Shown: positions 1 through 28,483, counted from the stretch's first letter. The stretch: DNA of 32,000 nt from Candidatus Iainarchaeum sp. (GCA_030688545.1 JAUYHT010000006.1:30001-62000), one strand, 5' to 3'. A program made the numbers and translations. Notes: generated by a model from the sequence alone, not told the origin.

Positions 1-700
1 GAAGTTCCGATCTGATAATGTCTTTTATTCTCTCTAATCGTGCTTCAGGTAAGGAGGCGATACTTTGTTGAATTTGCTTCTTTTCTTGCGGAGAAAAAAC
101 TTTTTCCAATTCCGATGGGGATAGGGATAAAAGGTATTGGTGGACATCCATTTTTCCTACGCGTTTGACGATTAAATCTAGAATGTCAGGATTTTTCATA
201 GCTTCTTGTGCAATGGCTTCAGCTCGTCGGTCAACAATGGTTTGAATCGGTTTAAAATATACGCCCATAAATTTTCGAATGGATGTCAGCCGCCTCATTT
301 GAAAAAGATCGAGGCTGAGCTTTTCGATTGTATGTTTATCCGGGTGAACATAATAAACCGTTCCAGGTTTTGCATGTGCATTTCTTCGTCCAACCTCAGC
401 GAGAATGGCACTCCCTAAAGGGTTAGAAGATAAATCGGTTCGTCTTTCAATATCCCTTGTCGTTGTGTTATATGTTTTACCAGCCAAATCACTTATTTCT
501 GAACCTGTCCCTAATCGATATAAGACTTTTTGAAACCCCACTCCTGAAGCAATCGGTATACTCGCCAATGCGGCAAACGTTACCGCTTTTTTGGTGGTTT
601 GCCAGGCTTTACGAGCACGCTCTCTGGCTTTGGACGGAGGCCTAATTCGTATTATTCGCGGTTTATCAGGTGATCTTCGTCTTGAAAAAGGGAATGCCAT
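1..700 (-). CDS. Hypothetical protein with its start in the window and its 3' end cut by the window edge. Arg/Pro-rich N-terminal tail followed by a hydrophobic segment. Paralog of the 19998..20846 product.
   Basis: The reverse-strand frame is open from ATG at 700 to base 1 (233 codons). It is absent from the track because there is no stop in the window. Sequence begins MAFPFSRRRSPDKPRIIRIRPPSKARERARKAWQTTKKAVTFAALASIPIASGVGFQ... The A/T box agatatataagta (719-731) lies about 25 nt upstream. It shares the RKAW(Q/D)TTK motif plus hydrophobic N-terminus with the 19998..20846 protein. Confidence 0.6.
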   Translation of the reverse strand, partial: MAFPFSRRRSPDKPRIIRIRPPSKARERARKAWQTTKKAVTFAALASIPIASGVGFQKVLYRLGTGSEISDLAGKTYNTTTRDIERRTDLSSNPLGSAILAEVGRRNAHAKPGTVYYVHPDKHTIEKLSLDLFQMRRLTSIRKFMGVYFKPIQTIVDRRAEAIAQEAMKNPDILDLIVKRVGKMDVHQYLLSLSPSELEKVFSPQEKKQIQQSIASLPEARLERIKDIIRSEL

Positions 701-880
701 GGCGCCATAAATGATTGAAGATATATAAGTATTCCTCCTTTCCACCTACTTTCTGTACAAAACTAATTAATCGTCAATCCCCAATTTTTGTTGGTACGAT
801 TAACGTAGGGGTTTATAACGTCCTTTTGGGAGGAGTTGGTCCTGCCTTTTGGGGCGGCGATCATGAGCAGGGGGAAAAAC

Positions 881-2731
881 ATGTACACCGAGAGCCAGCA
901 TACGACTAAACCCAATGGGATGGTGATCGCCAAAGCGACACTCAAGGATGTCTATTCCCCCAAGGATTTGAGAAAGATCCCCGTGGATGAGCTGCCAGCT
1001 ATCGCCCAGGAAATCCGCCAATTGCTCATTGACACCTGCGCCACCAATGGGGGGCATATCGGGGCCAATTTGGGGGTGGTGGAATTGACCATGGCCACGC
1101 ACTACGTGTTCAACACCCCTAAAGATAAGGTCATTTTCGACACCTCGCACCAGTGTTATACCCACAAGATTATCACCGGTCGCCAGGAACAATTTCCCAC
1201 TTTATGCAAATATCCCGGAGGGTTATCCCGATTCATTGTGCGGGGAGAAAGCGAGTACGATTTGTTTTCCGCCGGGCATGCGTCCACAGGTTTGAGTGCA
1301 TCCATGGGGTTTGCGGAAGCGGCTAAGCTCAAGAATGCCGATTACCAAACCGTGTGCATCGTAGGAGATGGCGCCCTCACTGGGGGAATGGCCTTTGAAG
1401 CCCTGAATAATATGGGGTACAACCAGACTGACATTACTATCATTCTCAATGACAACAAAATGGGCATCTCCCATAACGTGGGGGCCATGTATGAGTACCT
1501 CAAACGCCTTTCTGAAGTGTCGACGGAGGAGCAGGGGAGGCGGGGCATCGGAACCATATTTGAAAAGCTGGGATTCAAGTACTATGGTCCCATTGATGGA
1601 CACGATTTCCACGAATTGATCCATCATTTGGATGAGATGAAGCACATCAAGGGGCCTAAGATTTTGCACGTTCTAACGGATAAGGGTCGGGGCGTGGAAT
1701 ACATGCAGAATGACAAAGTGACCTGGCATGAGCACGCGGCGTTTGACATCCCTTCAGGAATGGCCAAGACCAAAATGGACAAGACCAAACCCCAGCATGC
1801 CAGCATTGAATCCATCGCCGTCAATACGCTTATCAAACTGGCTGAGACGGATGAAACTATTATTGCCCTCACAGCGGCGATGGCCACGGGAACCGGAATG
1901 GTCAAATTCGGGGAAAAATTTCCCAAGCGGTTTTATGATGTTGGCATCGCCGAGGAGCATGCGGTGACCTTTTCGGCAGGATTGGCCGCAGAAGGGATGA
2001 AGCCCGTGGCGTGTATCTATTCGCCTTTCCTGCAAAGAGGTTTTGATCAAATCATGCACGATGTGGCCAGCATGAATCTCCCGGTAAAATTCCTCGTGCC
2101 CAAAGCGGCCATTACCGGAGACGGGTGGACGCAGGGAGGGATCATGGATCTGAGTTACTTGCGCATCATCCCCAATATGGTCATCATGGCCCCCCAGGAT
2201 GAGAATGAATTGCAGCACATGGTGAAGACCGCGGTGGAATATGATAAAGGTCCCATTGCCGTGCGCTTCCCCAAAGGGACGAGTGAAGGGGTACCTCTGG
2301 ATGCGGAATGGCAATCCATTCCTATCGGGAAGGGGGTGGTTGTGCGGGATGGAAATGACATCACACTCTTGGCTATCGGGTGGATGGTGCAGGATGCGGT
2401 GAAGGCCGCCGCCCAACTTGAAACCTTGGGAATTTCCGCCGCCGTCATCAATGCGCGATTCGCCAAGCCTGTGGATGCCCAGCTTATTGCCACGTATGCC
2501 AAGAAGACGGGAAAAATAATGACTCTTGAGGAAAACACCCTCGTGGGGGGATTTGGGAGTGGGGTGATGGAAAGCCTGGAGCAGCAAAATCTTCTGGGCA
2601 CCACTCAATTGGTTCGCGTGGGCGCGGCCGACGCCTACATCCCCTATGATACCCCGGCGAATATCAAGAAGTCCTATGGGTTATCGTCTGACCGCATCGT
2701 CCAAAAAGCCCGCGAGATGGTGGGGCGATGA
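881..2731 (+). CDS. dxs: 1-deoxy-D-xylulose-5-phosphate synthase
   Basis: Long ORF with the DXS signature set: GGHIGANLGVVELT, HQCYTHKIITGR, IVGDGALTGGMAFEALNN...ILNDN (ThDP GDG-X-N motif), DVGIAEEHAVTFSAGLA and PIAVRFPKG. The track start at 836 is TTG. ATG 881 has AGGGGGA 5 nt upstream; ATG 863 is an alternative start. Confidence 0.93.
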   Translation: MYTESQHTTKPNGMVIAKATLKDVYSPKDLRKIPVDELPAIAQEIRQLLIDTCATNGGHIGANLGVVELTMATHYVFNTPKDKVIFDTSHQCYTHKIITGRQEQFPTLCKYPGGLSRFIVRGESEYDLFSAGHASTGLSASMGFAEAAKLKNADYQTVCIVGDGALTGGMAFEALNNMGYNQTDITIILNDNKMGISHNVGAMYEYLKRLSEVSTEEQGRRGIGTIFEKLGFKYYGPIDGHDFHELIHHLDEMKHIKGPKILHVLTDKGRGVEYMQNDKVTWHEHAAFDIPSGMAKTKMDKTKPQHASIESIAVNTLIKLAETDETIIALTAAMATGTGMVKFGEKFPKRFYDVGIAEEHAVTFSAGLAAEGMKPVACIYSPFLQRGFDQIMHDVASMNLPVKFLVPKAAITGDGWTQGGIMDLSYLRIIPNMVIMAPQDENELQHMVKTAVEYDKGPIAVRFPKGTSEGVPLDAEWQSIPIGKGVVVRDGNDITLLAIGWMVQDAVKAAAQLETLGISAAVINARFAKPVDAQLIATYAKKTGKIMTLEENTLVGGFGSGVMESLEQQNLLGTTQLVRVGAADAYIPYDTPANIKKSYGLSSDRIVQKAREMVGR

Positions 2732-2954
2732 GGTCCAGAAGAATGAAAAGGAATATTTTTTCGTAAAACTGAAAAAATAAAAAATTAAATATTTTTTTGA
2801 ATCGGAAAAGAGTTGACAGCCAATAGAGGAGAAATAATATTAGTTGAAGAAATAAAAAAGATCAAAAAAAAAAGAAAAGACATTAACAGCTACATAATAT
2901 GAATATGGGATTATTTTCCCTATCCATAAAAAAAGATCGGATCTGGTTACACGT

Positions 2955-4226
2955 ATGCAAAAACTGGAAACCATCAATGGATTTGCCAAGCGGAATACCT
3001 TTCCCGTAATGGTGGGCAAAGTGGGAATCGGCGGCCCTAACCCCGTGCGGGTGCAGAGCATGACCAACACCGACACCGCGGATGTCGCAGGTACGGTGAA
3101 ACAGATCAAAGAGCTGGCCGACGCGGGAAGCGAACTCGTTCGCTTCACGGTGGAGAAGGATGTCATGGCGCAGGCTGTTCCTGAGATTAGGAAACGCTTG
3201 CATGATGAAGGGTATGAGGATACCGCTCTCATCGGGGATTTTCACTACAATGGACATATTTTGTTATCCAAGTATCCCGCGCTCGCGGCGGCATTAGATA
3301 AATACCGCATCAACCCGGGGAATTGTGGGTTTGGAGAGAAGCATGACGCCAATTTCGATGCCTTTATCAAAATTGCCATCGAGCACGACAAGCCCGTGCG
3401 CATTGGGGTGAATGGGGGGAGTTTGGACCAGCAATTGCTGAAGAAGCTCATCGATGACGATAATCAAAAACCAGAAGCCGAACAAGTGGGCGCCAATATG
3501 GTGTTTCTGAATGCCATGGTGGAGAGTGCCCTCATCTCAACGGAACGCGCATTGGAATTGGGGATGAGCAAGAACCAGATCATCATTTCCACCAAAATGA
3601 GTGGGGTGCAGGAGATGGTATACTGTTATTCCAAACTATCCACTCTCACCCAACAGCCCTTGCATTTGGGATTGACGGAAGCCGGGATGGGGGACAAGGG
3701 GATTGTTTCCTCCACTGCGGCACTAAGTTTGTTGCTCAACCAGGGCATTGGGGATACGATTCGCGTGTCATTAACCCCGGAACCGGGAGCCCCCCGATCG
3801 CGCGAGGTGTTGCTTTGCCAGCAGATTCTGCAAAGCCTAGGGATGCGCTTCTTCCTCCCTCAAGTAACCGCCTGCCCGGGGTGCGGGCGTACCACGAGCA
3901 TCACCTTCCAGGAGCTGGCGCAGGAAGTCACCCAGTATTTGAACACCCAGATGCCCGAATGGAAGAAGCAAGGGTATGAGGGGGTGGAGAACATGCATGT
4001 CGCGGTGATGGGATGCATTGTTAATGGTCCAGGAGAAGCCAAGGATGCCAACATAGGTATCAGCCTACCTGGAAGCGGTGAGAACCCCGCGGCCCCCGTG
4101 TTCGCCGATGGAAAGCTCGTGAAAACCCTCCAGGGTCCCACCATGAAAGCCGATTTCAAGAAGATGGTCGCCGAATACGTGGAAAAGAAATACGGGAAGA
4201 AGAAGGAAATTCCGGTTCTATCCTGA
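2955..4226 (+). CDS. ispG: 4-hydroxy-3-methylbut-2-en-1-yl diphosphate synthase (GcpE/IspG)
   Basis: The 423-aa product has [36 protein letters not shown] at the N-terminus and the Fe-S cysteine motifs ACPGCGRT and GCIVNGPGE. An A/T box at 2926-2934 is centred 25 nt upstream of the ATG, and there is no SD. Confidence 0.93.
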
Positions 4227-4296
4227 AGCTAAAAAATTCAAAACTCCAATAACAGAAAGACGCCTAGTCTTCCAGTCCCACCAAACAAACCTGTTG

Positions 4297-4306
4297 TTTT
4301 TTATAT
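4297..4306 (+). promoter_or_regulatory. TATA-like A/T box for a leaderless gene (representative of a window-wide pattern)
   Basis: The box ttttttatat is centred 26 nt upstream of ATG 4328, with no SD in between. Confidence 0.5.
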
Positions 4307-4327
4307 CCTAGAAACATTCTCGCACCT

Positions 4328-4858
4328 ATGCCTCGAAGGAATCCGCGTGAACCCATCCAACGCCCCATGAAAAAACCACGCATTGGATCGGGCCGGTGGA
4401 TGATGCAAGGGCCGAAAAAAAGATTGGAGGCAGCTCAAGGTAAAGTAGGCAGAGCTCAAGGTAGGGAAAGTATTAGGAAAGGAAAATTAATGATTGCGAT
4501 TGAAGATCTCCAAGAAGCTTCTTTGGCAAATGGTAAGTTTCCCGAAAGTAGATTTCCCCATGAAATACCACTTGAATTTCTATCTGGAAAAGCAAAATAT
4601 TATGTTCATATTTATAATGAATATGTAAAAGCGTTAATAGATAGTGGTAGGGCATCTGAAGCTTTGGGTTTTAGGACGTGGATGATCCAAAAGCGAAGGG
4701 ATTTTGCCAAATCACCAGTTGGAAAGACCATTCGCCGAGCCGCTCTCCCGAAGCGTATGAAACGGCGCGGCCGAAGCCTGTGGGATGCCATGAACCGAGC
4801 GGCTGCCGTCGAGAAGGAAAAGCGCGCCCAGAGCAAAAAACCTTCACCCAAGAAATAA
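4328..4858 (+). CDS. Hypothetical basic protein with Pro/Arg/Lys-rich N- and C-termini
   Basis: 176-aa ORF beginning MPRRNPREPIQRPMKKPRIGSGR and ending ...KRAQSKKPSPKK. The A/T box ttttttatat (4297-4306) is centred 26 nt upstream of the ATG. I recognise no family. Confidence 0.55.
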   Translation: MPRRNPREPIQRPMKKPRIGSGRWMMQGPKKRLEAAQGKVGRAQGRESIRKGKLMIAIEDLQEASLANGKFPESRFPHEIPLEFLSGKAKYYVHIYNEYVKALIDSGRASEALGFRTWMIQKRRDFAKSPVGKTIRRAALPKRMKRRGRSLWDAMNRAAAVEKEKRAQSKKPSPKK

Positions 4859-4973
4859 TGTTAGAACGAAATTTTATTTGTCCTCCTCCCCCACTTAAAA
4901 GACGAGTATTTCCCGCTCCGGCATGCTAAAAATTTTCCATATTAATTTAAAGTTCGCGGCTCTATTATAATTT

Positions 4974-5258
4974 ATGACCTCCATCGCCAAAGACGCCTCG
5001 CTTGTTCAGGAAATGAAAATTCGGATTGAGCGATTGGAAACCCAAGTGGAAAACCTTCATCAATCCCGCCATAAATCAGAACTCTTTTCGGATGACCAAG
5101 CAAAGGAGCAAATTGAAAATTATTTATCCCAAAAGAAAATGGAAGGTAAAACGAAAATAAGTTTGCTGGATATCTCTCTGGACTTACATTTGCCCGTTTC
5201 CCAAGTTGAACCCATCATGGAAAAGCTTAAACATAAGGGAATTAGGGAAGTGGAATAA
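4974..5258 (+). CDS. Hypothetical small protein with a coiled-coil N-terminus and a possible winged-helix C-terminus
   Basis: 94-aa ORF. A heptad-like stretch (QEMKIRIERLETQVENLHQ) is followed by ISLLDISLDLHLPVSQVEPIMEKLKHKG. Its stop overlaps the next start (TAATG). Confidence 0.5.
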   Translation: MTSIAKDASLVQEMKIRIERLETQVENLHQSRHKSELFSDDQAKEQIENYLSQKKMEGKTKISLLDISLDLHLPVSQVEPIMEKLKHKGIREVE

Positions 5259-5476
5259 TGCCCGACATTTCCATCCCCGTTACGGAAATCGATGGAGAAA
5301 AGTGGGTTTTGCTCAAAACCGTTTTGGGTGAAAAGGTTGTTTTTCGTGCCGCCTCCATTGAAAAAAGAAATCAACGCGTAAAAGAAACTTCAGGTCATCG
5401 TGTGGATGAAGCGGTAGGCGAAGGCAGTGTAAAATGTCGGAGCAAACTGTACGACATTACCCCATACGTAAAATAG
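5258..5476 (+). CDS. Hypothetical small protein
   Basis: 72-aa ORF translationally coupled to the 4974..5258 gene (TAATG overlap). Begins MPDISIPV. No recognisable family. Confidence 0.4.
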   Translation: MPDISIPVTEIDGEKWVLLKTVLGEKVVFRAASIEKRNQRVKETSGHRVDEAVGEGSVKCRSKLYDITPYVK

Positions 5477-5482
5477 AGGAGA

Positions 5483-5749
5483 ATGAACATGCGCTTCGAA
5501 AAGAAAGTCTGGCCCGAATTTTTCCAAAGCGTTTTGGATGGGATGAAAACGTATGACCTGCGTCTGGCCGACTTTACCATTTCCCCAGGCGACATACTTG
5601 TTTTACGGGAGTGGGACCCCATCTCTAAAGCGTACACCGGGAGGAAGATTGAAAAAAACGTCACATATATTGGCAAAACAAAAGGCACACCCTTCTGGCC
5701 GGCCGACCAGATCGAAAAATATGGGTTCCAGATTATCGCGTTTAAATAG
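5483..5749 (+). CDS. ASCH/DUF3850-like (PUA-fold) small protein
   Basis: 88 aa. The sequence KKVWPEFFQSVLDGMKTYDLRLADFTISPGDILVLREWDP...YTGRKIEKNVTYI fits the DUF3850/ASCH pattern (x-yF-x-G-K-x-E-R, GD-x-L-x-E, YTGR). GAGGA lies just upstream. ATG 5489 is an alternative start. Confidence 0.55.
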   Translation: MNMRFEKKVWPEFFQSVLDGMKTYDLRLADFTISPGDILVLREWDPISKAYTGRKIEKNVTYIGKTKGTPFWPADQIEKYGFQIIAFK

Positions 5750-5820
5750 TGCGGCGGGACGCGGGACCAACGTTTTAATACACAAAGACCATTCACCTGC
5801 ATGGGTTGGGAGGAATAGGT

Positions 5821-6609
5821 ATGCGTCCAAAGGTGATTGTCGGGAATTGGAAGATGAATCTTACGATAGCCGAGGGAAAGGCGCTCGCAGAGGACGTGCG
5901 CAAGTATTCGCAATTGCATCTCCCCGGCACCCCCATCAAGGTAGTCCTGTGCCCGCCCTTCACGCATCTCATTGAGGTGGGAAATACGTTGAAGGAGAGC
6001 GAAGTCGACGTGGGAGCGCAGGATTGCCATTATGAGAATTTTGGGCCCTACACAGGTGATATTAGTGCCGCTATGCTCGCGGGGGCGGGGTGTCGATATT
6101 GTATTTTAGGTCATTCTGAACGACGGGCGGCCTACAAGGAACCCGGGCGCATCCTCAATGCCAAGGTGCTCGCCGTGTTACGACAGAATATGATTCCCAT
6201 CTTCTGCATCGGAGAGACATTAGAGGAGAAGAACGCCGGTAAAACCAATGAGGTGCTGGCGCAACAAATGAAAGAAGGATTGGCCGCTATTCCCAGAGAT
6301 CAAATAGGAAAAATCATTTTGGCGTACGAACCGGTGTGGGCAATATCCACGAGCAAGGATAACCAGGGGGCTCCCGCCACCCCCGCAGGGGCGAATACCA
6401 TTCACCAGTTTATCCGCGAGCAGATCAAATTATCATTTGGCAATGAGGCCGCGCAGGGCATTCTCATCCTCTACGGGGGGAGTGTTAAGTCCGAGAACGC
6501 GCGAGGGTTCCTTATTCAAACCCACATCGACGGATGTTTAGTGGGAGGCGCCTCCCTCAAGAAGGACTCCTTCTGCGGCATCATCGATGCAGCCAACATC
6601 CCGCAGTGA
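5821..6609 (+). CDS. tpiA: Triosephosphate isomerase, long bacterial-type form with an atypical loop 6
   Basis: Carries VIVGNWKMN, GHSERR, AYEPVWAI, ILYGGSV and LVGGASL. GGAGGA (5809-5814) lies 6 nt upstream of ATG 5821. The track start at 5806 is TTG. Confidence 0.9.
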   Translation: MRPKVIVGNWKMNLTIAEGKALAEDVRKYSQLHLPGTPIKVVLCPPFTHLIEVGNTLKESEVDVGAQDCHYENFGPYTGDISAAMLAGAGCRYCILGHSERRAAYKEPGRILNAKVLAVLRQNMIPIFCIGETLEEKNAGKTNEVLAQQMKEGLAAIPRDQIGKIILAYEPVWAISTSKDNQGAPATPAGANTIHQFIREQIKLSFGNEAAQGILILYGGSVKSENARGFLIQTHIDGCLVGGASLKKDSFCGIIDAANIPQ

Positions 6610-6646
6610 TGGTAAGCCTTTTAGCTGGGGGAAGGTTTCCTTTCCA

Positions 6647-7114
6647 ATGCCACACCTCCCACAAAGACCATTGCCCCAAGTCCGGAAGCGGCTCCAGCGC
6701 TTCAAGGCGGGCGCGCGGCACCTCATCCGGGCCTGGCAAACCTTTCGCACCGATGCCCGATTAAGGAAAATAAGAAAGTTGATGGAAGCGGGAAGGTTCC
6801 TGGGGCTCGCGGACAAGACAAGCAGCATCTTAGCGATAGCCATTATGGACCTCAAAATCGTCCCCCGGGAGATGCGGCCCACGCAGCAGCAAATACGCAT
6901 CGTGAAAGAGGCCGCGAAATGGGCCCGAAAAAGAACGAAGATCGAGGACCAATTGCGGGCATTCAAATGGGAATTGGAGCGCATGCACTCCCGCCTCTCC
7001 AAGACCGATCGCATGGTCTACCATCATCGTATCAGCGATTTGGAAAACGCACTCAAAAAAATCAAGGTGATTGAGATTCATCTCAAAGAGGATTGGAGAC
7101 GCGCATCGGGGTGA
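6647..7114 (+). CDS. Hypothetical basic protein
   Basis: In-frame ATG at 6647 within track ORF 6587..7114 (the 6587 start would overlap the tpiA end). Begins MPHLPQRPLPQVRKRLQRFKAGARHLIRAWQTF... and is rich in Arg/Lys and predicted helix. Confidence 0.45.
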   Translation: MPHLPQRPLPQVRKRLQRFKAGARHLIRAWQTFRTDARLRKIRKLMEAGRFLGLADKTSSILAIAIMDLKIVPREMRPTQQQIRIVKEAAKWARKRTKIEDQLRAFKWELERMHSRLSKTDRMVYHHRISDLENALKKIKVIEIHLKEDWRRASG

Positions 7115-7125
7115 AAACAGCGTTC

Positions 7126-7135
7126 TATAAAAATA
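7126..7135 (+). promoter_or_regulatory. TATA-like A/T box
   Basis: The box tataaaaata is centred 25 nt upstream of ATG 7155, with no SD. Confidence 0.5.
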
Positions 7136-7154
7136 ATGGATTCCTGTTTCAAGA

Positions 7155-7748
7155 ATGCCGCCCCCTCCATCCAAACGCCCTCGGAAGGGCAGGGTAAAAC
7201 AACATAAGTTCGTCCATCGACCGCCGGTGTTGACGATGGATTACATAATCGAACACCACATCGACTTGATCCATGACCCCGCCAAGCGATGGGAATCTTC
7301 ATTCGCCCCATTCAACATCGACAGGGAGGATTTGGCCCAGGAAGCGTTGGTCGCGTTGATCAAGGAAGCTCCAAAATATGATGTGAACAGGGGCTCCTCC
7401 AACACTTTCGTGAATCATGTGGTCAATTCCCGATTCAACAAGATTCTACGAACCTTAAAAGAGAAAAAGAGGCATCCTGGAGGGAAGAAGGTTTCCTTCC
7501 CCCTGGATTTATCTTCCTCCCGATCCTCCGAAGGAAGCCATCGGGCGCTGATAAAGTATTGGCGGCGGCTTTATAACAAATATTCCCCGATACTTTCACC
7601 AAAGGAAAAAAAGATCATGGAAATGCGGATGCAGGGGATGAACTACAGGGAAATTGGCGCTGTGTTCAACTTGACCCAAAACCGAATTCAGCAGATCGTT
7701 AAACTATCCATCCAAAGGATGCGCGATCGCTTCTTGGAGCTGGAATAA
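7155..7748 (+). CDS. Sigma-70 family (ECF-like) protein with a basic Pro-rich N-terminal extension
   Basis: The region-2-like stretch EDLAQEALVALIKEAPKYDVNRGSSNTFVNHVVNSRFNKILR aligns by eye with RpoE [39 protein letters not shown]. The region-4 HTH is LSPKEKKIMEMRMQGMNYREIGAVFNLTQNRIQQIVKLSIQRMR. The A/T box tataaaaata (7126-7135) is centred 25 nt upstream. Confidence 0.7.
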   Translation: MPPPPSKRPRKGRVKQHKFVHRPPVLTMDYIIEHHIDLIHDPAKRWESSFAPFNIDREDLAQEALVALIKEAPKYDVNRGSSNTFVNHVVNSRFNKILRTLKEKKRHPGGKKVSFPLDLSSSRSSEGSHRALIKYWRRLYNKYSPILSPKEKKIMEMRMQGMNYREIGAVFNLTQNRIQQIVKLSIQRMRDRFLELE

Positions 7749-7833
7749 GGAATTTTTTCACATATTTCCCATCCGCAGGAAAAACGAGGGACCGGAGCAA
7801 GCATTATTAATCCCCCTAATCCTACCCTTCTTC

Positions 7834-8889
7834 ATGCCCTCCGACAAAGGCACGAGTTCCCGGAAGCTCGAGCATGTGAATATCGTGCTGGGGAAGCCCG
7901 TGCAGTTCACCCAAATGACCCCGGGTTTCGAGGAAATGGAAATAGAATACCTCACCCTCCCCGAGCTGGATGCGGAAAAAATAGACACGCGCACTCATTT
8001 TTTGAAGCACCCCTTTTCGTTCCCCTTCATGGTTTCTTCCATGACCGGGGGGCATGCTAAAACGACCAAAATAAACCAGGATATTGCCACGGCCTGCGAG
8101 GAAGTAGGCATCGGTATGGGTTTGGGAAGCACCCGCGCGGCCATTGAGGATCCCAAGACCTTTTCCTCGTTTGACGTTCGGAAGCACGCCCCCTCCATCT
8201 TCCTCGCGTGCAATTTAGGGGTGTCGCAATTGAAGCATTATTCTACCCCCAAAATTCAGAAGCTCGTGGATGACTTACAGTGCGATGCGCTCATCCTCCA
8301 TTCCAATGCCGCCCAGGAGATCGTGCAGGAAGAAGGAACCCCCCAATTCGGGGGGTGTTTGAATGAAATTGCTCGAGTCGCCCGGGAGTTGGAACAACCG
8401 GTTTATGTCAAGGAAGTGGGGAATGGCATTTCCCCTTCCATAGTGAAAAAATTGAGCGAGACCCGCATCGCGGCCATCGATGTGGCGGGGGCGGGAGGAA
8501 CGAGTTGGACGGCCATCGAGAGCCGGCGGGGGACTCAAAATAATAAGGCGTTGGGCGAGCTATTTTGGAATGTGGGCATCCCCACTATTCCCGCTATCCT
8601 GGGGGCGCGGAAATATGGGAACAAGCCCATCGTGGGAAGCGGGGGCGTGCGGAGCGGAGTGGATATCCTCAAGTGCATGGTCTTGGGATGTTCCCTCACC
8701 AGCGCGGCCATTCCCGTGATCCACGCACAACATGGAGGAGGAAAACCAGCCATCGTGGCGCATATCGAATCGTTAAAACGAGCCTTCCGCGCGGGCATGT
8801 TCCTCGTGGGTGCGGCGCGCGTGCCCGACCTTAAGGGCAAGAAATATTATTTATTCGGCCGGACAAAAGAATGGGTGGAGCAGATATGA
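7834..8889 (+). CDS. fni: Isopentenyl-diphosphate delta-isomerase, type 2 (FMN-dependent)
   Basis: Carries the IDI-2 motifs SRKLEHV, SSMTGG, GLGSTRAA, HSNAAQE, PVYVKEVGNGIS, DVAGAGGTSWTAIE, WNVGIPT and GSGGVRSGVDILK. An A/T box at 7802-7811 is centred 28 nt upstream. Confidence 0.9.
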   Translation: MPSDKGTSSRKLEHVNIVLGKPVQFTQMTPGFEEMEIEYLTLPELDAEKIDTRTHFLKHPFSFPFMVSSMTGGHAKTTKINQDIATACEEVGIGMGLGSTRAAIEDPKTFSSFDVRKHAPSIFLACNLGVSQLKHYSTPKIQKLVDDLQCDALILHSNAAQEIVQEEGTPQFGGCLNEIARVARELEQPVYVKEVGNGISPSIVKKLSETRIAAIDVAGAGGTSWTAIESRRGTQNNKALGELFWNVGIPTIPAILGARKYGNKPIVGSGGVRSGVDILKCMVLGCSLTSAAIPVIHAQHGGGKPAIVAHIESLKRAFRAGMFLVGAARVPDLKGKKYYLFGRTKEWVEQI

Positions 8890-8948: not shown

Positions 8949-9551
8949 ATGGCCTCTACGAAAAACCAACCGTTATTCATCCCCGTCATCTACGGTTCGG
9001 TCCGCACCGCGCGGCGGGGTATCCGGGCGGCTCGTTTCTGGGTGAATGAAGTGGAGAAGCGCGGGCATGAGAGTGTGTTGGTGGATCCTAAAGAAAAAAA
9101 ATTTGCCTTACCCCTGTTGGACAAGATGTATAAGGAATATCCGAAAGGAAAAGCCCCTGAAAACATGGAGCGCATTGGGAAAATTATGCGTCGGGCGGAT
9201 GCGTATCTCATCGTCTCCGCGGAATACAACCATTCTATTCCCCCCGCGTTGAGCAACACCTTGGACCATTACCTCGAGGAGTATTTTTTCAAGCCCGCGG
9301 GCATCATCACGTATTCCGTGGGAAGTTTTGGAGGCGTGCGCGCCGCGGTGCATCTGCGGGCCATGCTGGGGGAGATGGGGATGCTCACCATCTCCAATAT
9401 GTTCGCCATCCCCAAGGTACAGGAGGCGTTTGATGAGGATGGGAAACCATCCGATGCTAAATATTTCGATCGGTCAAAGAATTTCCTCGAGGAACTGGAA
9501 TGGGTCGCCCGCGCCTTGAAGGCGGCGCGGGAAAAAGGAACGCCGTATTAA
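8949..9551 (+). CDS. NADPH-dependent FMN reductase family protein
   Basis: 200 aa. IPVIYGSVRTARRGIRAARFW...ADAYLIVSAEYNHSIPPALSNTLDH matches the flavodoxin-like FMN_red pattern. Confidence 0.75.
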   Translation: MASTKNQPLFIPVIYGSVRTARRGIRAARFWVNEVEKRGHESVLVDPKEKKFALPLLDKMYKEYPKGKAPENMERIGKIMRRADAYLIVSAEYNHSIPPALSNTLDHYLEEYFFKPAGIITYSVGSFGGVRAAVHLRAMLGEMGMLTISNMFAIPKVQEAFDEDGKPSDAKYFDRSKNFLEELEWVARALKAAREKGTPY

Positions 9552-9599
9552 TTCGATCCATAAAATAAAGACCGGAGAAAATCCATAAGGAAAAATCCA

Positions 9600-9608
9600 T
9601 TTTTTTTT
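9600..9608. terminator. Oligo-T tract (T9) between convergent genes
   Basis: A run of 9 T at 9600-9608 lies between the 8949..9551 (+) and 9680..10156 (-) genes. Oligo-T is the usual archaeal intrinsic termination signal. Confidence 0.4.
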
Positions 9609-9679
9609 AAATATTCCATATTTAGATAGCCCTAATTAATGATCCTTTTCTCAATGGAGACACCTTCAATTGTACAATT

Positions 9680-10156
9680 CTACAAGTAGGTCTTGCGCAA
9701 TTCCTCTAATGCGTTCTCTATATTCTGGGTGGAGGAGATGACCCCGCGGGAGATCCAGTAGTTATAGGAGGCCACCACGTCCAATGGTTCGGCATCCGGC
9801 GCGGGGTTGAAGCGGTAGTGTTGTTTTTCGCGAACCAGTAAACGTGAATCCAGGAGGCGTTTGAGATGGTAGCGCAGGAGTTTCTCGGAGATGGCTTCTC
9901 CCGTCTTGTCAAGGATAAACTGTTGAATCTCCTTAGTTGTGGGCGCGGCCTTTTGAGAGAGGTGGAAATGGAATAAGGCATCCATCACATCTAAGATGGT
10001 CTGCCGGGACTCCTGTTCTGAAAGGAGACCGGAGGCGAGGGCGAACCAGCGGAGGAGACCGCGCTTAGTCATCCTAACCTGAGGGGGGAGGTCCACTTCC
10101 TTGATGGTGAAGGTGCGCCGCACCAAATCCGCTTCGGGAAGCCTTATCTTCGACAT
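9680..10156 (-). CDS. Hypothetical winged-helix DNA-binding protein
   Basis: ATG at 10156 (MSKIRLPEADL...) has GGAGGA 7 nt upstream; the track start at 10171 is TTG. The segment TTKEIQQFILDKTGEAISEKLLRYHLKRLLDSRLLVREKQHYRFNP looks like a wHTH. It is divergent from the 10328-12058 orphan operon. Confidence 0.5.
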   Translation of the reverse strand: MSKIRLPEADLVRRTFTIKEVDLPPQVRMTKRGLLRWFALASGLLSEQESRQTILDVMDALFHFHLSQKAAPTTKEIQQFILDKTGEAISEKLLRYHLKRLLDSRLLVREKQHYRFNPAPDAEPLDVVASYNYWISRGVISSTQNIENALEELRKTYL

Positions 10157-12458: not shown

Positions 12459-13555
12459 ACTCTATTTTCCTTTACCGGATGTTAAAAGCTGCCAGGTTTG
12501 TTTTCCCTTAATTATTCCTGCCCACTAAATACTACATAAATGATAACTTTATTTCGATCATCAAAACCCCGTTAATTTTCAACTCCATTTCCAGCCCCAT
12601 CTCCAAATATTTCAAAAAAATCAATTTACAAAATTCCCCTATTGTAGAGATACAGGATAATTGTGATTATCCGGCATATTAGGGGAATAATGGGGGTCTC
12701 CAAATGAAAAAGGGCTAAGAAAGGGCAATAATGGTCAAATTCGATGAAACGAAACAAAAATCATGGGCATCTTCAAGAAGGGTCAATCCTATTGAAAAAG
12801 CTCGTATAACGCTTATCTGATTAGCAGGTGAAATAAATAGAAGCGGGATAATTCGTCGAATGGTGGTTTATCACGGTTTTTTGTTTCAAGGGGGCTCAAG
12901 GTGGAAAATGTTAATTCAATTTGTAAGTTATGTATAAGTATGAGGAATAGTTCAAAGGTTGGGATTTTTTTGGGGAAGAAAGTTTACCCTTAATCGGAGA
13001 AATTTTTCTTTTGCCAAATTTTCAGGTGGAAGATAAAAAACAATTAATTTAGTTTCAGGCACCGGGTTAACGAGAAGACGGCCATCCAAAGTCGATGTAT
13101 TTTCAAGTGCCTTCCCTCACGAATCACCGAGGGAAACACCCCACCAGAAAATACCATTTAACATATCTGCCGCGATATCTAATCTGTTGTGTTCAATTTT
13201 TTGATAGAGTTTAAAGATACTTCCTACTTTGCCACATTTTTGAAAATCCTTGAATCCATAGAATTACCTTGGAACGGATAGATACTGCATGAAATGGATA
13301 GATACGGCATTAAATTGAAAGGAATATTATTTTGGCTTAACTAATATATTATTTCCATCATTTGGGGTCCTCAGGAGTACTCATCTACTCGTTTCGGTGT
13401 ATCATGCCCTCCATCTCTCCGAAAGGCTAACTGGATTACAATTCCATGCCAGAGGCATTGCAGAAGAAAAAGTTCCAATCCCCTTTGGCTAAGCGGCGAT
13501 GAACCAGAAGTGATTCACCCTTTCGTTTAAATGGAATAAAGCCCAATGCAATCCC
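12459..13555. other. 1.1-kb AT-rich region with no ORF of 60 codons or more in any frame
   Basis: The supplied six-frame track has no ORF starting inside 12529-13555. Only broken short frames are present. The region contains the inverted repeat GGATAAT-tgtg-ATTATCC (12655-12672) and a 15-nt direct repeat with a 20-nt period (13276-13310). Confidence 0.6.
13276..13310. repeat. Direct repeat GGATAGATAC(T/G)GCAT in two copies 20 nt apart
   Basis: Copies at 13276-13290 and 13296-13310 are identical at 14 of 15 positions. They lie about 250 nt upstream of the 13556 gene. Confidence 0.7.
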
Positions 13556-22392: not shown

Positions 22393-22659
22393 TTAAGCCT
22401 GCGGAGAGTGGGCCGCCGCGCCCTTTTTAACCCTCGATTCCATGAACGGGGGTATATGCCCTCCCCCCCGATCATACCATTGTCCGCCCGGCCTTTCCCC
22501 AAAAATAGAAATTATTTTTCCCCATCCAACCCTTTTTCCCATCCATCACAATCAGCAACAATAGCGGAAAATAGTCAGAGGCGTTCGGCCAATGGGAGAT
22601 TCCAAAAATCCCCTCGTCCCTCGGTGTGGCTGGGCGAAGCAGATCCTACCTTTTCTTCA

Positions 22660-22678
22660 GGGGTATCGAGGATACCCC
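22660..22678. promoter_or_regulatory. Perfect 19-nt palindrome GGGGTATC-GAG-GATACCCC upstream of (or within the leader of) the first pilin-like gene
   Basis: 8-bp arms at 22660-22667 and 22671-22678 with a 3-nt spacer, read directly from the sequence. Confidence 0.6.
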
Positions 22679-22728
22679 GGGTTCGGGGCGGCCGGACGAA
22701 AACGGCCATCGAAAGCGGCCGCGGGCAG

Positions 22729-23301
22729 ATGAGCGCGCCTTTCGAATTGCTCATCGCGGTCATCCTCATGGGATTTGTTCTCTTCGCCGGGTTTACCGCC
22801 ATCCAGCAGCTCCAGCAACAGACCTGCGTGAACACCATCCATTCCCAGCTGGAAAAATTGGGTCGGAATCTCCAGAATGTCGCCACTGGAAAAGGCAGCG
22901 CGCAGTTCCAGTTCTCCCTGGAGGGGTGTTCGGCCCGAATCAATGATTGTGCCCAGTTTTCCCAATTAGCCTCCGCCGGGCAGGAAGTGGAATGCATCCA
23001 GCTCCAGGATTCCACTGACCCCAATATTTGTTCGAGCTATTGTTCTTCCGCCCGTTCCGTGTGTTCCCTCCTCATCTACCGTTCGGCCAAATATGATACC
23101 ACCATCAAGTGCGTGGATATTTCTCCCTCCACTGTTTTCCCGGCCCAGGGCAGCCAGCAGTGTCCTGACCGTTCCCTGGAGGGCTGGGTCCTCCAGGATT
23201 TTACGACCTCAACCATTCGACAAGGTACTTATTCCCTGCTCAAGGGATCAGAATTAACGGCCACCGTACCCATTGTGTGTGCCTATTACCGCCAGGGGTA
23301 G
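22729..23301 (+). CDS. Pilin-like protein with a class-III-type N-terminus and a Cys-rich (10 Cys) extracellular domain
   Basis: ...GRGQ/MSAPFELLIAVILMGFVLFAGF resembles archaeal EppA-type (QxSxEF) and TadE-type prepilin N-termini. ATG is at 22729. An in-frame GTG at 22624 would give a 35-aa leader ending in RGQ, so the start is uncertain. Confidence 0.55.
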   Translation: MSAPFELLIAVILMGFVLFAGFTAIQQLQQQTCVNTIHSQLEKLGRNLQNVATGKGSAQFQFSLEGCSARINDCAQFSQLASAGQEVECIQLQDSTDPNICSSYCSSARSVCSLLIYRSAKYDTTIKCVDISPSTVFPAQGSQQCPDRSLEGWVLQDFTTSTIRQGTYSLLKGSELTATVPIVCAYYRQG

Positions 23302-23308
23302 ACCGTGC

Positions 23309-23905
23309 ATGATTGAGTTCACTCTTTCCAAAATAAATCTGCTCATTCTCGTCGTGGCTTTGTTTGGAATCATTTCTTTTTTCACTTTCAACCTGGGAGG
23401 GGTTTTCCTGGTAAATGAGGTGAAGCAGGAATTGGACACCTATTCCGCCACCATCAATGCGAGTCTCATCGCTCCCACGACATGCGATAGTAAGCCCTTT
23501 TCCATCCCCCCCAAATTCAAGTCGTTCGGGAGCGATGTATTCTATACCCTTTCCTTGTCCCAAATCCCTGATGGGTTGGGTAACCGCCTCATCTTTTCGG
23601 CGTCGGACATTCGCAAACCCGATTTGGTGTTAGCCGCCTCCTCCCTGGCCACGGATGCCCGCATTGTTATCTTCTCGGATGCCGGAGGAACATTTTTCCC
23701 CCTTTCTCCGGGGGAGGAATATGTTTTGGATCCCCAATCCGTGCCTCCCCGGAATGCGTTTTATATGGTGAAGAGTGTGATGCGTGGTAACACGACTTTG
23801 TATCTCATTCCATGCGCTATTTCCGCGCATGCCGAAACGTGCCAAACGAATAAGCAATTGGTAAATCAATTTCTCACGTCCTCGGGAGAAGGATTTGTAT
23901 GCTAA
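23309..23905 (+). CDS. Pilin-like / N-terminally anchored secreted protein
   Basis: Begins MIEFTLSKINLLILVVALFGIISFFTF, a charged IEF motif followed by a roughly 20-aa hydrophobic helix, then a soluble domain with 4 Cys. It starts 8 nt after the previous stop. Confidence 0.5.
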   Translation: MIEFTLSKINLLILVVALFGIISFFTFNLGGVFLVNEVKQELDTYSATINASLIAPTTCDSKPFSIPPKFKSFGSDVFYTLSLSQIPDGLGNRLIFSASDIRKPDLVLAASSLATDARIVIFSDAGGTFFPLSPGEEYVLDPQSVPPRNAFYMVKSVMRGNTTLYLIPCAISAHAETCQTNKQLVNQFLTSSGEGFVC

Positions 23906-24444
23906 CCCTTTTTTTGGGCGATCGGGGCTATTTGGGTCCCGTGGGGGATGACATCCCCAGCCTTATCCCCATTGTCGTGGCATTGGTCATCTTCTTCTCT
24001 GCCTTCACATTCACTCTCAATGAGTTCAATTCGCGAGGCCAAAGCTTTAACGCGGACCGGGATGTTCTTATTATCGCTAACGCGTTGAAAGGGGATAGCT
24101 ATATTGCCTCCTACCCTGAATTTGGGAGGGCTTGTGCGGGGTTACGAGTGCGGGGGTTGAATTACGTGGCGGGTCTCGTGGAGTCCTCGCGTTGGCATTC
24201 CATGTCCCAACAGGCCGCTGCCCAGCCCGATCAGCCAATTTTGAGTTTCATCGCCGATGCCTTCCACACCGAGAACAACCAGGAATTCTCCTGCCTTGGC
24301 GGGATTCAAGCCCCCCTCACGCAGGGGGGTTTGGCTTCCCTTCTTTTGGATAATCAGCATATCGTCCTCTCCTTTCCTGTGGCCCTGGAGTTGAGCACCG
24401 CGGTGGTCCCCGCGACTTTGGTGGTGATTGCTTGGAGAGTGTAA
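23899..24444 (+). CDS. Pilin-like / N-terminally anchored protein
   Basis: Begins MLTLFLGDRGYLGPVGDDIPSLIPIVVALVIFFSAFTF (basic-Gly followed by a hydrophobic helix). It overlaps the previous gene by 7 nt (ATGCTAA). Confidence 0.5.
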   Translation: MLTLFLGDRGYLGPVGDDIPSLIPIVVALVIFFSAFTFTLNEFNSRGQSFNADRDVLIIANALKGDSYIASYPEFGRACAGLRVRGLNYVAGLVESSRWHSMSQQAAAQPDQPILSFIADAFHTENNQEFSCLGGIQAPLTQGGLASLLLDNQHIVLSFPVALELSTAVVPATLVVIAWRV

Positions 24445-24463
24445 GGCTTTCATTTCTTTGTCT

Positions 24464-24489
24464 GGGTTCCAGGAGTCAACCTGGAACCC
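24464..24489 (+). promoter_or_regulatory. Perfect 10-bp stem / 6-nt loop hairpin between the third and fourth pilin-like genes
   Basis: GGGTTCCAGG (24464-24473), agtcaa, CCTGGAACCC (24480-24489). It begins 20 nt after the stop at 24444 and is not followed by a T-tract. Confidence 0.65.
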
Positions 24490-24532
24490 TAACTCCGCAG
24501 CGGCCCGACGGAACGGGCCAGGTGGTGAAATC

Positions 24533-28356: not shown

Positions 28357-28483
28357 ATTGGTTTCTGGAAAAGGCCTCTTGGGTTTGAAAAAGACCTTTG
28401 ATAATTGAAGGCTGGGGTGATTTTTTTCCGGAACCCCGAATAAGCCTTAAATAGGCCTCTTTCCCCTACCCTGCGCGAGCAAT

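Follow-up and report, generated by a model that had tools for sequence, protein, structure and literature searches.

A complete set of bacterial-type MEP genes clustered with an archaeal type-2 IPP isomerase gene in an archaeon of the Iainarchaeota

The 32,000-nucleotide stretch of DNA analysed here (the window) probably comes from an archaeon of the Iainarchaeota, a DPANN lineage, and covers the right-hand half of a supercluster for isoprenoid precursors that is conserved there. As a unit, the supercluster encodes all steps from pyruvate and glyceraldehyde-3-phosphate (GAP) to IPP and DMAPP. Its triosephosphate isomerase (TIM) would interconvert DHAP, from which the archaeal glycerol-1-phosphate backbone derives, and GAP, the substrate of Dxs; its type-2 isomerase (IDI-2) would balance IPP against DMAPP. 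We propose that the MEP genes came from bacteria through an ancient horizontal transfer, followed by vertical inheritance, that the encoded enzymes are active, and that their products feed archaeal ether-lipid synthesis.

An earlier reading, made from the sequence of the window only, had placed dxs, ispG and the isomerase gene fni as listed below, and the product of each exceeds the cut-off of its equivalog model. The cluster and its surroundings in the window comprise the following features:

2-745, minus strand: 3' part of a hypothetical gene (264 aa), an open frame leaving the window at its start and corresponding to 9026-9820 of a second contig, L002
881-2731, plus strand: dxs (Dxs); TIGR00204 702.8 bits (cut-off 465.95); Pfam DXP_synthase_N, Transket_pyr and Transketolase_C
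2926-2935, plus strand: TATA-like box ATAAAAAAAG, 29 nt before the start codon of ispG, a putative leaderless-type archaeal promoter
2955-4226, plus strand: ispG (gcpE), HMBPP synthase, MEP step 6; NF001540 427.6 (cut-off 345), TIGR00612 348.5 (cut-off 280.25)
4227-5820, plus strand: variable cargo slot between ispG and the TIM gene, with four small genes (176, 94 and 72 aa, and a DUF3850/ASCH-like protein of 88 aa)
5821-6609, plus strand: TIM, apparently bacterial-type; Pfam TIM 273.9 bits, TIGR00419 168.5 (cut-off 130.6)
7155-7748, plus strand: ECF-like sigma-70 family protein; Sigma70_r2 29.5 (cut-off 24), r4 31.4 (24.1), TIGR02937 61.7 (42.9)
7803-7811, plus strand: TATA-like box ATTATTAAT, 31 nt upstream of IDI-2
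7834-8889, plus strand: fni/IDI-2, type-2 FMN-dependent IPP:DMAPP isomerase; TIGR02151 339 (cut-off 281.3)
8949-9551, plus strand: NADPH-dependent FMN reductase family protein; Pfam FMN_red 103 bits
9680-10156, minus strand: winged-helix protein flanking the cluster; weak HTH_12 match

The absence of dxr, ispD, ispE, ispF and ispH from the window, which had been noted correctly and read as a sign of a partial pathway, is an effect of the window's edge: all five genes lie on the same DNA, 0.9-9 kb to the left of position 1. They are carried by L002 (41.7 kb), which was assembled independently and matches the window without a mismatch over 12,731 bp, and these five of the seven MEP genes were read from its DNA outside the window. 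A second occurrence, on a contig of 0.2-1 Mb with mostly the same neighbouring proteins, is presumably the window's own 446-kb contig. Their products, like Dxs and IspG, all exceed the TIGRFAM equivalog cut-offs (IspE 214.6 against 138.7; IspH 233.1 against 187.85; Dxr 484.1 against 315.7; IspD 210.6 against 181.3; IspF 175 against 116.45). The seven genes are contiguous and span ~12 kb in the order ispE-ispH on the minus strand, then dxr-ispD-nudix-ispF-dxs-ispG and, further on, TIM and IDI-2, the 264-aa hypothetical gene standing between dxs and the group from ispE to ispF. With all seven enzymes encoded contiguously, the pathway is not partial, and the suggestion of a dxs confined to thiamine/PLP synthesis finds no support.

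The Nudix gene of the cluster was considered as a type-1 IPP isomerase (IDI-1) and rejected: its product scores 58 bits against a cut-off of 127 for NF002995 and 42.5 against 105.8 for TIGR02150, and its motif WDASAGGH lacks the Cys required in NxxCxHP. By these measures it is an IDI-1/YfcD-like Nudix hydrolase and no isomerase.

Residue-level inspection of Dxs and IspG bears out the earlier statement that their motifs are intact. The best PDB matches of Dxs are bacterial DXPS enzymes (527 bits), and alignment to 8A8Y shows the ThDP motif GDGA-x-TGGMAFEA-x-N...NDN complete. IspG aligns over its full length with Thermus IspG (PDB 4S38; 477 bits) and retains both motifs for Fe-S ligands, CPGCGRT and GC(I/V)VNGPGE, which supply the three Cys and the Glu of the 4Fe-4S cluster. 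For TIM, the top-ranked PDB entries that we could place are 1BTM and 1B9B, which we take to be bacterial enzymes, and we recognised no archaeal-type TIM among the 60 entries listed; the comparison points to a bacterial-type TIM. IDI-2 scores 196.6 bits against 2ZRU (residues 9-349) and 194.8 bits against 1VCF, and its closest homologues beyond its own clade come from Diapherotrites, Methanofastidiosia and Micrarchaeota MAGs. These affinities show IDI-2 to be of archaeal descent, and the cluster, with its bacterial-type MEP genes, is therefore a true hybrid route, one of the two forms (transferred or hybrid) that the sequence-only reading had proposed.

The same gene order is found in 14 GTDB species-representative archaeal MAGs, among them the closed 1,048,949-bp "Candidatus Iainarchaeum" chromosome CP064981.1. 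IspG is 81-85% identical in these 14 species genomes, Dxs is 63-79% identical to its orthologues in the relatives L003-L016, and across the clade the cluster proteins share 56-85% amino-acid identity. TIM occupies the same place, after ispG and before IDI-2, in 8 of the 14 relatives. A far more distant lineage, L081, keeps the same order with an IspG 63% identical, and genes of the geranylgeranyl reductase family (TIGR02032 above cut-off) adjoin the cluster both there and in L085. The closest bacterial IspG homologues, 60-65% identical, are metagenomic proteins and proteins from Deltaproteobacteria MAGs and Paraburkholderia; the one tree built was a neighbour-joining tree without support values, composed mostly of metagenomic sequences. 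The sequence-only reading had named one finding that would count against it, full MEP clusters being common in the assigned lineage. They are common, the cluster being the norm within this clade, and since acquisition of MEP pathways by DPANN archaea is also in the literature already (PMC6107057, PMC8204110, PMC8421398, PMC12892359), the surprise is smaller than had been assumed.

Two slots within this conserved frame are variable. The four cargo genes between ispG and TIM, of which only the DUF3850 gene has a Pfam match, are missing in relatives, where the gap can be as short as ~70-110 bp, and the slot has a lower GC content (0.44) and a weaker tetranucleotide correlation. The sigma-70 family gene, whose regions 2 and 4 both exceed the Pfam gathering scores, occupies the second slot (6610-7833), does not belong to the conserved cluster and has no counterpart in L003-L016. 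The FMN reductase is likewise not kept in those relatives and is genome-specific; it could possibly supply reduced flavin to IDI-2 or electrons to IspG/IspH. The winged-helix protein, a candidate regulator, is syntenic and 72-78% identical in L006, L007, L011, L013 and L014, and in the distant lineage L081 a homologue 47% identical immediately follows ispG.

A different role for the cluster would follow if genes for a mevalonate pathway were also present at another site in the genome: it might then be devoted to particular products (DXP for thiamine or pyridoxal, HMBPP, or polyprenols and quinones) instead of supplying lipid precursors in bulk. Surveys report mevalonate genes in Diapherotrites/Iainarchaeota (PMC6107057, PMC10936187), and a related 'Ca. 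Diapherotrites' MAG (L089, GCA_030649735.1) carries a mevalonate supercluster, HMGR-HMGS-thiolase-MVK-UbiX-UbiD-AcnX-IPK-x-IDI2, whose IDI-2 is the closest outgroup of the isomerase described here (53% identity). Yet the conservation of seven steps and IDI-2 together at the identities given above exceeds what a supply of DXP would need. Moreover, the best 120 homologues of mevalonate kinase (MVK), which reach down to 40% identity and span several DPANN phyla, include none from CP064981.1 or from the window's contig (445,965 bp), whereas the same homologue search readily recovered the IDI-2 of CP064981.1; this absence concerns MVK as a single marker. The MVK-bearing MAGs also share no contig size with the contigs of MEP type. 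We consider coexistence unlikely and favour the reading that, within this clade, the mevalonate pathway gave way to the MEP pathway.

Genes for rRNA, tRNA and ribosomal proteins are absent from the 32-kb window, and the host was assigned from SerRS, from the arrangement of promoters, and from how relatives are named and which genes they carry. NCBI and GTDB records label the relatives Candidatus Iainarchaeum, Diapherotrites or archaeon. Against solved structures, SerRS scores best with 2DQ0 (395 bits), which we take to be the Pyrococcus horikoshii enzyme, and next with 2DQ3 (306 bits), presumably that of Aquifex; by this comparison it is of the archaeal type. Across 45 genes, TATA-like AT-rich 8-mers are concentrated at −35 to −26, with 79 matches against ~8 per 5-nt bin elsewhere, a peak that fits leaderless mRNAs. 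The box before ispG, a gene correctly described earlier as having a TATA-like element and no Shine-Dalgarno sequence, is part of this locus-wide positional pattern, as are the boxes before IDI-2 and, at −31, the sigma-70 family gene. An SD-like GGGAGG precedes TIM at −13; Shine-Dalgarno sites are confined to internal operon genes, and TATA-box promoters of archaeal type would drive transcription of the MEP genes. Linked to the cluster in the same or sister genomes are deoxyhypusine synthase, a PAC2 proteasome chaperone, a FlaI-like ATPase and a RuBisCO-family large subunit that falls below all NCBIfam cut-offs; a Class_IIIsignal protein adjoins the cluster in the relative L012. The archaeal host proposed from the sequence alone is in this way upheld and placed in the Iainarchaeota ("Diapherotrites"), within DPANN. 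One line of the original argument is lost: the ORFs at 22408-25294, cited as pilins, have hydrophobic N-termini but no Pfam match even at E<5, the Class_IIIsignal and archaeal pilin N-terminal models included. About 8 kb past the edge of the window is a T2SSE/T2SSF assembly locus.

That the host is instead a bacterium, for instance of a CPR lineage, mislabelled as an archaeon is highly improbable. A sigma-70 family gene, a bacterial-type TIM, an MEP pathway and many ORFs without a family match would suit such a host, but DPANN archaea are known to carry sigma-70 genes (PMC8204110), and all relatives are classed as archaea. The TATA boxes lie ~30 nt from start codons, not in the form of −10/−35 elements with leaders; SerRS is archaeal in type; IDI-2 groups with archaeal sequences; and the linked genes include PAC2, deoxyhypusine synthase, a class-III signal peptide protein, a FlaI-like ATPase and geranylgeranyl reductase.

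Descent of the cluster within an archaeal genome also agrees with its composition, the tetranucleotide correlation of the MEP genes with the rest of the window being r = 0.92, against 0.15-0.40 with bacterial ispG loci; there is no break, and a chimeric assembly is therefore excluded. An assembly or binning artefact, in which a bacterial dxs-ispG fragment was joined to archaeal DNA, might seem to be suggested by the bacterial type of the genes, the lack of universal markers in the window, and the sigma-70 family gene and bacterial-type TIM between ispG and IDI-2, but it is effectively refuted by two independent assemblies identical base for base, by the recurrence of these junctions, next to archaea-specific genes, across 14 MAGs that come from separate studies and on a closed chromosome, by the uniform tetranucleotide signature, and by archaeal-type promoters before ispG, IDI-2 and the sigma gene. 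The earlier view of ispG as domesticated rather than contaminating stands and extends to the MEP genes as a whole, bacterial-type imports that have archaeal promoters, the host's tetranucleotide signature and conservation in at least 14 species.

The Iainarchaeota cluster adds a complete MEP set with an archaeal IDI-2 to the DPANN cases already described in Woesearchaeota and Micrarchaeota. Co-located MEP/DOXP genes have been reported in Woesearchaeota (Castelle & Banfield 2018, as cited; Castelle et al. 2021, PMC8204110; Huang et al. 2021, PMC8421398), and the likeness is close: a bacterial MEP pathway in a DPANN archaeon, genes co-located near prenyl-lipid genes, and sigma-70 genes in the same genomes. 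The phylum here is Iainarchaeota, however, not the lineage of the Woesearchaeales; ispD and ispF, fused in Woesearchaeota subgroup J, are separate with the Nudix gene between them; a bacterial-type TIM and an archaeal IDI-2 close the cluster; and no G3P dehydrogenase or fatty-acid genes were seen adjoining it. The Woesearchaeota MEP genes have been linked to Firmicutes, unlike the nearest bacterial IspG homologues here. In Micrarchaeota, a DPANN lineage close to Iainarchaeota, there are orders with a complete bacterial MEP pathway, read as horizontal transfer that aided reduced host dependence (Natl Sci Rev 2025, PMC12892359); the mevalonate and MEP pathways coexist in some of those orders, whereas the evidence here points to MEP only. 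A broader survey found MEP enzymes sparsely distributed, gave no cluster architecture, and described Diapherotrites as of the mevalonate type (PMC6107057); our results agree with it on the general phenomenon and on horizontal transfer.

Compared with bacteria, the same seven enzymes are present, each recognised by bacterial equivalog models, but the bacterial ispG loci retrieved (e.g. L080) carry ispG alone. The L089 mevalonate supercluster resembles the MEP cluster as a compact single-locus precursor pathway ending in an orthologous IDI-2 in the same phylum-level group, although its chemistry is entirely different and IDI-2 is the sole shared element of synteny. The sequencing run of L089 (SRR13727527) is numbered close to that of the window (SRR13727534).

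The DNA of this Iainarchaeota lineage carries a complete and conserved set of genes for the MEP pathway, the bacterial isoprenoid-precursor route, with archaeal promoters and together with a type-2 IPP isomerase (IDI-2). In a profile search of the window ORFs, dxs, ispG and the IDI-2 gene score above their family cut-offs at the positions where the sequence-only reading had put them. Dxs matches bacterial DXPS structures with 527 bits and retains the ThDP motif GDG...NDN, IspG aligns over its full length with Thermus IspG (4S38, 477 bits) and keeps the Fe-S ligand motifs CPGCGRT and GC(I/V)VNGPGE, and both genes are intact. The same reading had allowed that the pathway might be partial, or that dxs might serve thiamine/PLP synthesis only. 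An exact look-up of IspG and Dxs in Logan returned a 41.7-kb contig from an independent assembly (L002, SRR13727534) that shows zero mismatches to the window across the shared 12,731 bp and extends to its left. It also gave one further occurrence, on a contig of 0.2-1 Mb with largely the same neighbouring proteins, which we take to be the window's own 445,965-bp contig. When this DNA was searched for dxr, ispD, ispE, ispF and ispH, all five were found immediately left of window position 1, each above its TIGRFAM equivalog cut-off. All seven enzymes are thus present on contiguous DNA, and with the set together the suggestion of a dxs dedicated to thiamine/PLP is unsupported.

Genes of the cluster, from left to right
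left of window position 1 (on L002), minus strand: ispE and ispH
left of the window (on L002), between ispH and dxr: a 204-aa secreted or membrane protein (hyp204)
left of the window (on L002), after hyp204: dxr, a 91-aa ORF, ispD, a Nudix gene and ispF, in this order
left of the window and across its left edge, between ispF and dxs: an inositol-monophosphatase-family protein (left of the window), then a 264-aa gene whose 3' part occupies 2-745
881-2731, plus strand: Dxs (TIGR00204, 702.8 bits against a cut-off of 465.95)
2955-4226, plus strand: IspG (NF001540, 427.6 against a cut-off of 345)
7834-8889, plus strand: IDI-2 (TIGR02151, 339 against a cut-off of 281.3)

The seven MEP enzymes are encoded within about 12 kb, and a triosephosphate isomerase (TIM) and IDI-2 lie inside another 5 kb. 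Between ispG and IDI-2 are four small ORFs, the 262-aa TIM, a 110-aa ORF and a 197-aa ECF-like sigma-70 family protein; in the profile search one of the four small ORFs matched DUF3850 and the other three matched no family.

The MEP cluster is not an artefact. The order ispE and ispH (both minus strand), then dxr, ispD, Nudix, ispF, dxs and ispG, then TIM and IDI-2, followed by a wHTH gene (minus strand), hyp119 and hyp96, is common to 14 archaeal genomes that derive from several studies; in these relatives the MEP enzymes are 56-85% and IDI-2 is 71-78% identical in amino acids. The cluster is also found on a closed chromosome, CP064981.1, where, as a separate observation, the TIM gene (9185-9966 of its cluster locus, L088) is called as two overlapping ORFs of 111 and 176 aa, which may reflect a frameshift, a pseudogene or a sequencing error. 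Tetranucleotide composition is consistent as well: the MEP genes correlate with the remaining window at r = 0.92, compared with 0.15-0.40 for bacterial ispG loci, and the sole deviation is a 1.6-kb insert at 4227-5820 with a GC content of 0.44. This insert fills one of two variable slots, ispG-TIM (4227-5820) and TIM-IDI-2 (6610-7833), which hold other cargo in other genomes and are nearly empty in two relatives (L006 and L014), where the genes flanking both slots are almost adjacent. The low GC and deviating tetranucleotides of 4227-5820 suggest recent insertions. Outside the cluster, a 1.1-kb AT-rich gap at 12459-13555 (GC about 0.41) has no ORF of at least 70 aa, gives only sub-threshold chance matches to Rfam and is not kept in relatives; neither Rfam at the gathering threshold nor ARAGORN finds a non-coding RNA in the window.

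The host is an archaeon, as the sequence-only reading had proposed, and this is borne out by the relatives of IspG, the seryl-tRNA synthetase, the promoter pattern and linked genes. The 24 closest IspG homologues, some of them named 'Candidatus Diapherotrites' or 'archaeon' by NCBI, are 78-85% identical and are followed by a gap to 60-65%. In a scan with one genome per GTDB species, IspG is 81-85% identical in the 14 archaeal genomes, among them that of a 'Candidatus Iainarchaeum archaeon' with the closed chromosome CP064981.1 (1,048,949 bp), and bacterial matches start at 60% or below. Among PDB structures the window's SerRS matches 2DQ0 best, with 395 bits, followed by 2DQ3 with 306 bits; from their codes we take these to be the Pyrococcus horikoshii and Aquifex aeolicus enzymes, respectively. 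Upstream of the 45 genes of the composite locus, TATA-like AT-rich 8-mers number 79 at -35 to -26 from the start codon and about 8 per 5-nt bin elsewhere, a peak that we read as the signature of archaeal promoters on leaderless mRNAs. Such boxes precede ispG (-29), IDI-2 (-31), the sigma gene (-31) and an FMN reductase gene (-29), and in the composite locus Shine-Dalgarno motifs are confined to genes inside operons, among them ispH, ispF and TIM. Also linked to the cluster, in the same or sister genomes, are genes for the proteasome-assembly chaperone PAC2, a FlaI-like ATPase together with T2SSF platform proteins, deoxyhypusine synthase and a class-III signal peptide protein. A linked RuBisCO-family large subunit scores below the cut-off of every NCBIfam model, the best being OiaX decarboxylase and type III RuBisCO.

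The pilins that had also been offered as evidence for an archaeal host were not confirmed, as the four ORFs concerned (22408-25294, plus strand) have hydrophobic N-termini and no family match in the profile search. Behind them, at 28451-32000 (plus strand), lies a very large ORF with no Pfam match, whose complete form in L082 has about 1,530 aa, and a T2SSE/T2SSF pilus-assembly locus lies about 8 kb past the window end. A bacterial host, the first impression given by the sigma-70 gene and the bacterial-type TIM, is overturned by the IspG relatives, SerRS and promoters. An origin from a huge phage or virus was considered since the window encodes a sigma factor, a PD-(D/E)XK nuclease and a tRNA synthetase and over half of its ORFs lack a Pfam match; it is rejected, as ten ORFs without a known family gave no match in a PHROGs search and the relatives are cellular genomes.

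The nearest IspG proteins outside the clade are of two kinds. One comes from two distant MEP loci whose surroundings look archaeal: L081 repeats the gene order of the clade and carries a flanking wHTH gene 47% identical in product and a geranylgeranyl reductase gene, and in L086 dxr, ispH and ispG adjoin genes for DUF2070 and a cis-prenyltransferase. The other is found in a bacterial-looking context (L080), where ispG is solitary, whereas in Iainarchaeota it sits inside the seven-gene cluster. A neighbour-joining IspG tree, calculated with no support values, places the Iainarchaeota clade as sister to the L081/L086 group, which points to an old acquisition followed by mostly vertical inheritance. 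The IspH proteins of L081 (4508-5449) and L086 (2406-3359) are only 26-27% identical to that of L002 (2759-3772), compared with 43-63% for the other MEP enzymes, suggesting at least one later replacement by a xenologue inside an otherwise conserved cluster. For IDI-2 the closest relatives outside the clade are a Diapherotrites MAG (53%), Methanofastidiosia (51%) and Micrarchaeota (45%), and with archaeal nearest outgroups IDI-2 is therefore of archaeal descent. The top-ranked structure matches of TIM include 1BTM and 1B9B, which we take to be bacterial TIMs, and none of the 60 PDB entries listed is one that we recognise as an archaeal-type TIM. The cluster is thus a real mosaic, in which the archaeal IDI-2 stands beside a TIM and seven MEP genes that are all bacterial. 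Of the sequence-only reading, the proposal of transferred, domesticated MEP genes beside an archaeal IDI-2 in an archaeon stands, and its hedge about a partial pathway falls away.

The closest IDI-2 outgroup belongs to a sister lineage of the mevalonate (MVA) type, represented by a 'Ca. Diapherotrites' MAG (GCA_030649735.1; L089). Here a complete archaeal-type MVA supercluster (L089 1-11056) lies directly upstream of IDI-2 in the order HMGR, HMGS, thiolase with its DUF35 partner, MVK, UbiX, UbiD, AcnX large and small subunits, IPK, one ORF and IDI-2, with genes for ribosomal proteins L7Ae, S28e and L24e in the vicinity. This supercluster was found again (L090), in a sequencing run numbered near the window's. 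The MVA and MEP clusters are both compact and both end in an orthologous IDI-2, but their pathway genes differ. Reciprocal tblastn of L089 against all MEP-type loci detected nothing in common besides IDI-2 and no synteny of the flanks; an in-situ cassette swap at one chromosomal site has no evidence in its favour. The 120 best homologues in a search with the L089 MVK reach down to 40% identity and belong to Diapherotrites, Aenigmarchaeota, Nanoarchaeota, Nanohalarchaeota and even Patescibacteria. Neither the closed MEP-type genome (CP064981.1) nor the window's 445,965-bp contig has an MVK among the 120 matches listed, and the equivalent IDI-2 search recovered the closed genome's protein, which suggests, short of proof, that mevalonate kinase is missing from the MEP-type clade. 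Geranylgeranyl reductase family genes (TIGR02032, above cut-off) adjoin the cluster in L081 and in L085, a relative with the MEP cluster, and would fit a cluster that supplies archaeal lipid synthesis. We consider it an even chance that in one Iainarchaeota clade the seven-gene MEP supercluster took over from the ten-gene archaeal MVA supercluster still present in sister lineages, both docked to the same ancestral IDI-2. If so, the archaeal ether lipids of this clade would be made entirely from MEP-derived IPP and DMAPP, and the clade would provide a natural whole-pathway swap between the two routes and would contradict the notion that transfer of MEP genes as an operon does not occur.

The textbook rule assigns mevalonate to archaea and MEP to bacteria, and it underlies arguments about the lipid divide and the pathway content of last common ancestors. 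Exceptions in DPANN are already documented, and the Iainarchaeota cluster belongs to this known phenomenon. Hoshino & Gaines (2018) reported 'a few DPANN archaea' with MEP enzymes obtained by HGT and Diapherotrites as MVA-type (PMC6107057), and Castelle et al. (2021) found the MEP genes co-located in 52 Woesearchaeota that form one clade and documented sigma-70 genes in DPANN (PMC8204110), citing Castelle & Banfield (2018) for the DPANN MVA/MEP distribution. In Woesearchaeota subgroup J the MEP genes include a fused ispDF (Huang et al. 2021, PMC8421398), whereas Iainarchaeota have ispD, Nudix and ispF as separate genes. A 2024 survey lists Iainarchaeota as MVA-type (PMC10936187). No description of an Iainarchaeota MEP cluster was found in the literature searched, a scope that leaves Youssef et al. 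(2015) and the supplement of Hoshino & Gaines (2018) outside; genomes with the cluster are already public and annotated. New here is a further phylum-level lineage, reported in the available papers as using mevalonate rather than MEP, with the most compact architecture among the loci and papers examined (seven MEP genes, TIM, Nudix and an archaeal IDI-2, verified in a closed genome), and the contrast with the sister lineage's equally compact MVA cluster. The MEP/MVA sister pair is a clean natural experiment on core-pathway exchange. It also speaks for MEP genes as a unit that can be transferred, against a recent generalisation (PMC13001223), and the locus offers a ready-made single-locus MEP module with archaeal promoters.

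In the working that we propose, Dxs would join pyruvate and GAP, and Dxr through IspH would yield IPP and DMAPP. TIM would link the GAP that Dxs consumes to DHAP, from which glycerol-1-phosphate is made as well, and IDI-2 would set the IPP:DMAPP ratio. More speculatively, the genome-specific FMN reductase (8949-9551) beside IDI-2 may give reduced flavin, and the Nudix protein encoded between ispD and ispF may act as a control valve by removing phosphate from prenyl diphosphates. The Nudix gene (L002 about 6867-7517, left of the window) is IDI-1/YfcD-like and present in the cluster of nearly all relatives; its product lacks the IDI-1 catalytic Cys (WDASAGGH) and scores 58 bits against an IDI-1 cut-off of 127. 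The 120-aa ORF call is probably truncated, with a conserved N-terminal part in frame upstream, and the likely start is the ATG at L002 6867, overlapping the 3' end of ispD. In L085 a YjbQ-family gene and a RuBisCO-family large-subunit gene (5730-7457) sit between the Nudix gene and ispF.

A candidate for a dedicated regulator of the MEP cluster is the 158-aa wHTH protein (9680-10156, minus strand), whose gene flanks the cluster clade-wide and directly follows ispG in L081. The ECF-like sigma-70 gene (7155-7748, plus strand), with regions 2 and 4 above the Pfam gathering scores and an archaeal TATA box, is not conserved in the 14 relatives. Hyp204 was considered as a sigma-like regulator and rejected, as it looks secreted or membrane-bound and has no similarity to the window's sigma factor or to the sigma_r4 protein of L085. 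Sigma_r4-containing proteins other than the window's are encoded next to dxr in L085 and in a second relative, L015.
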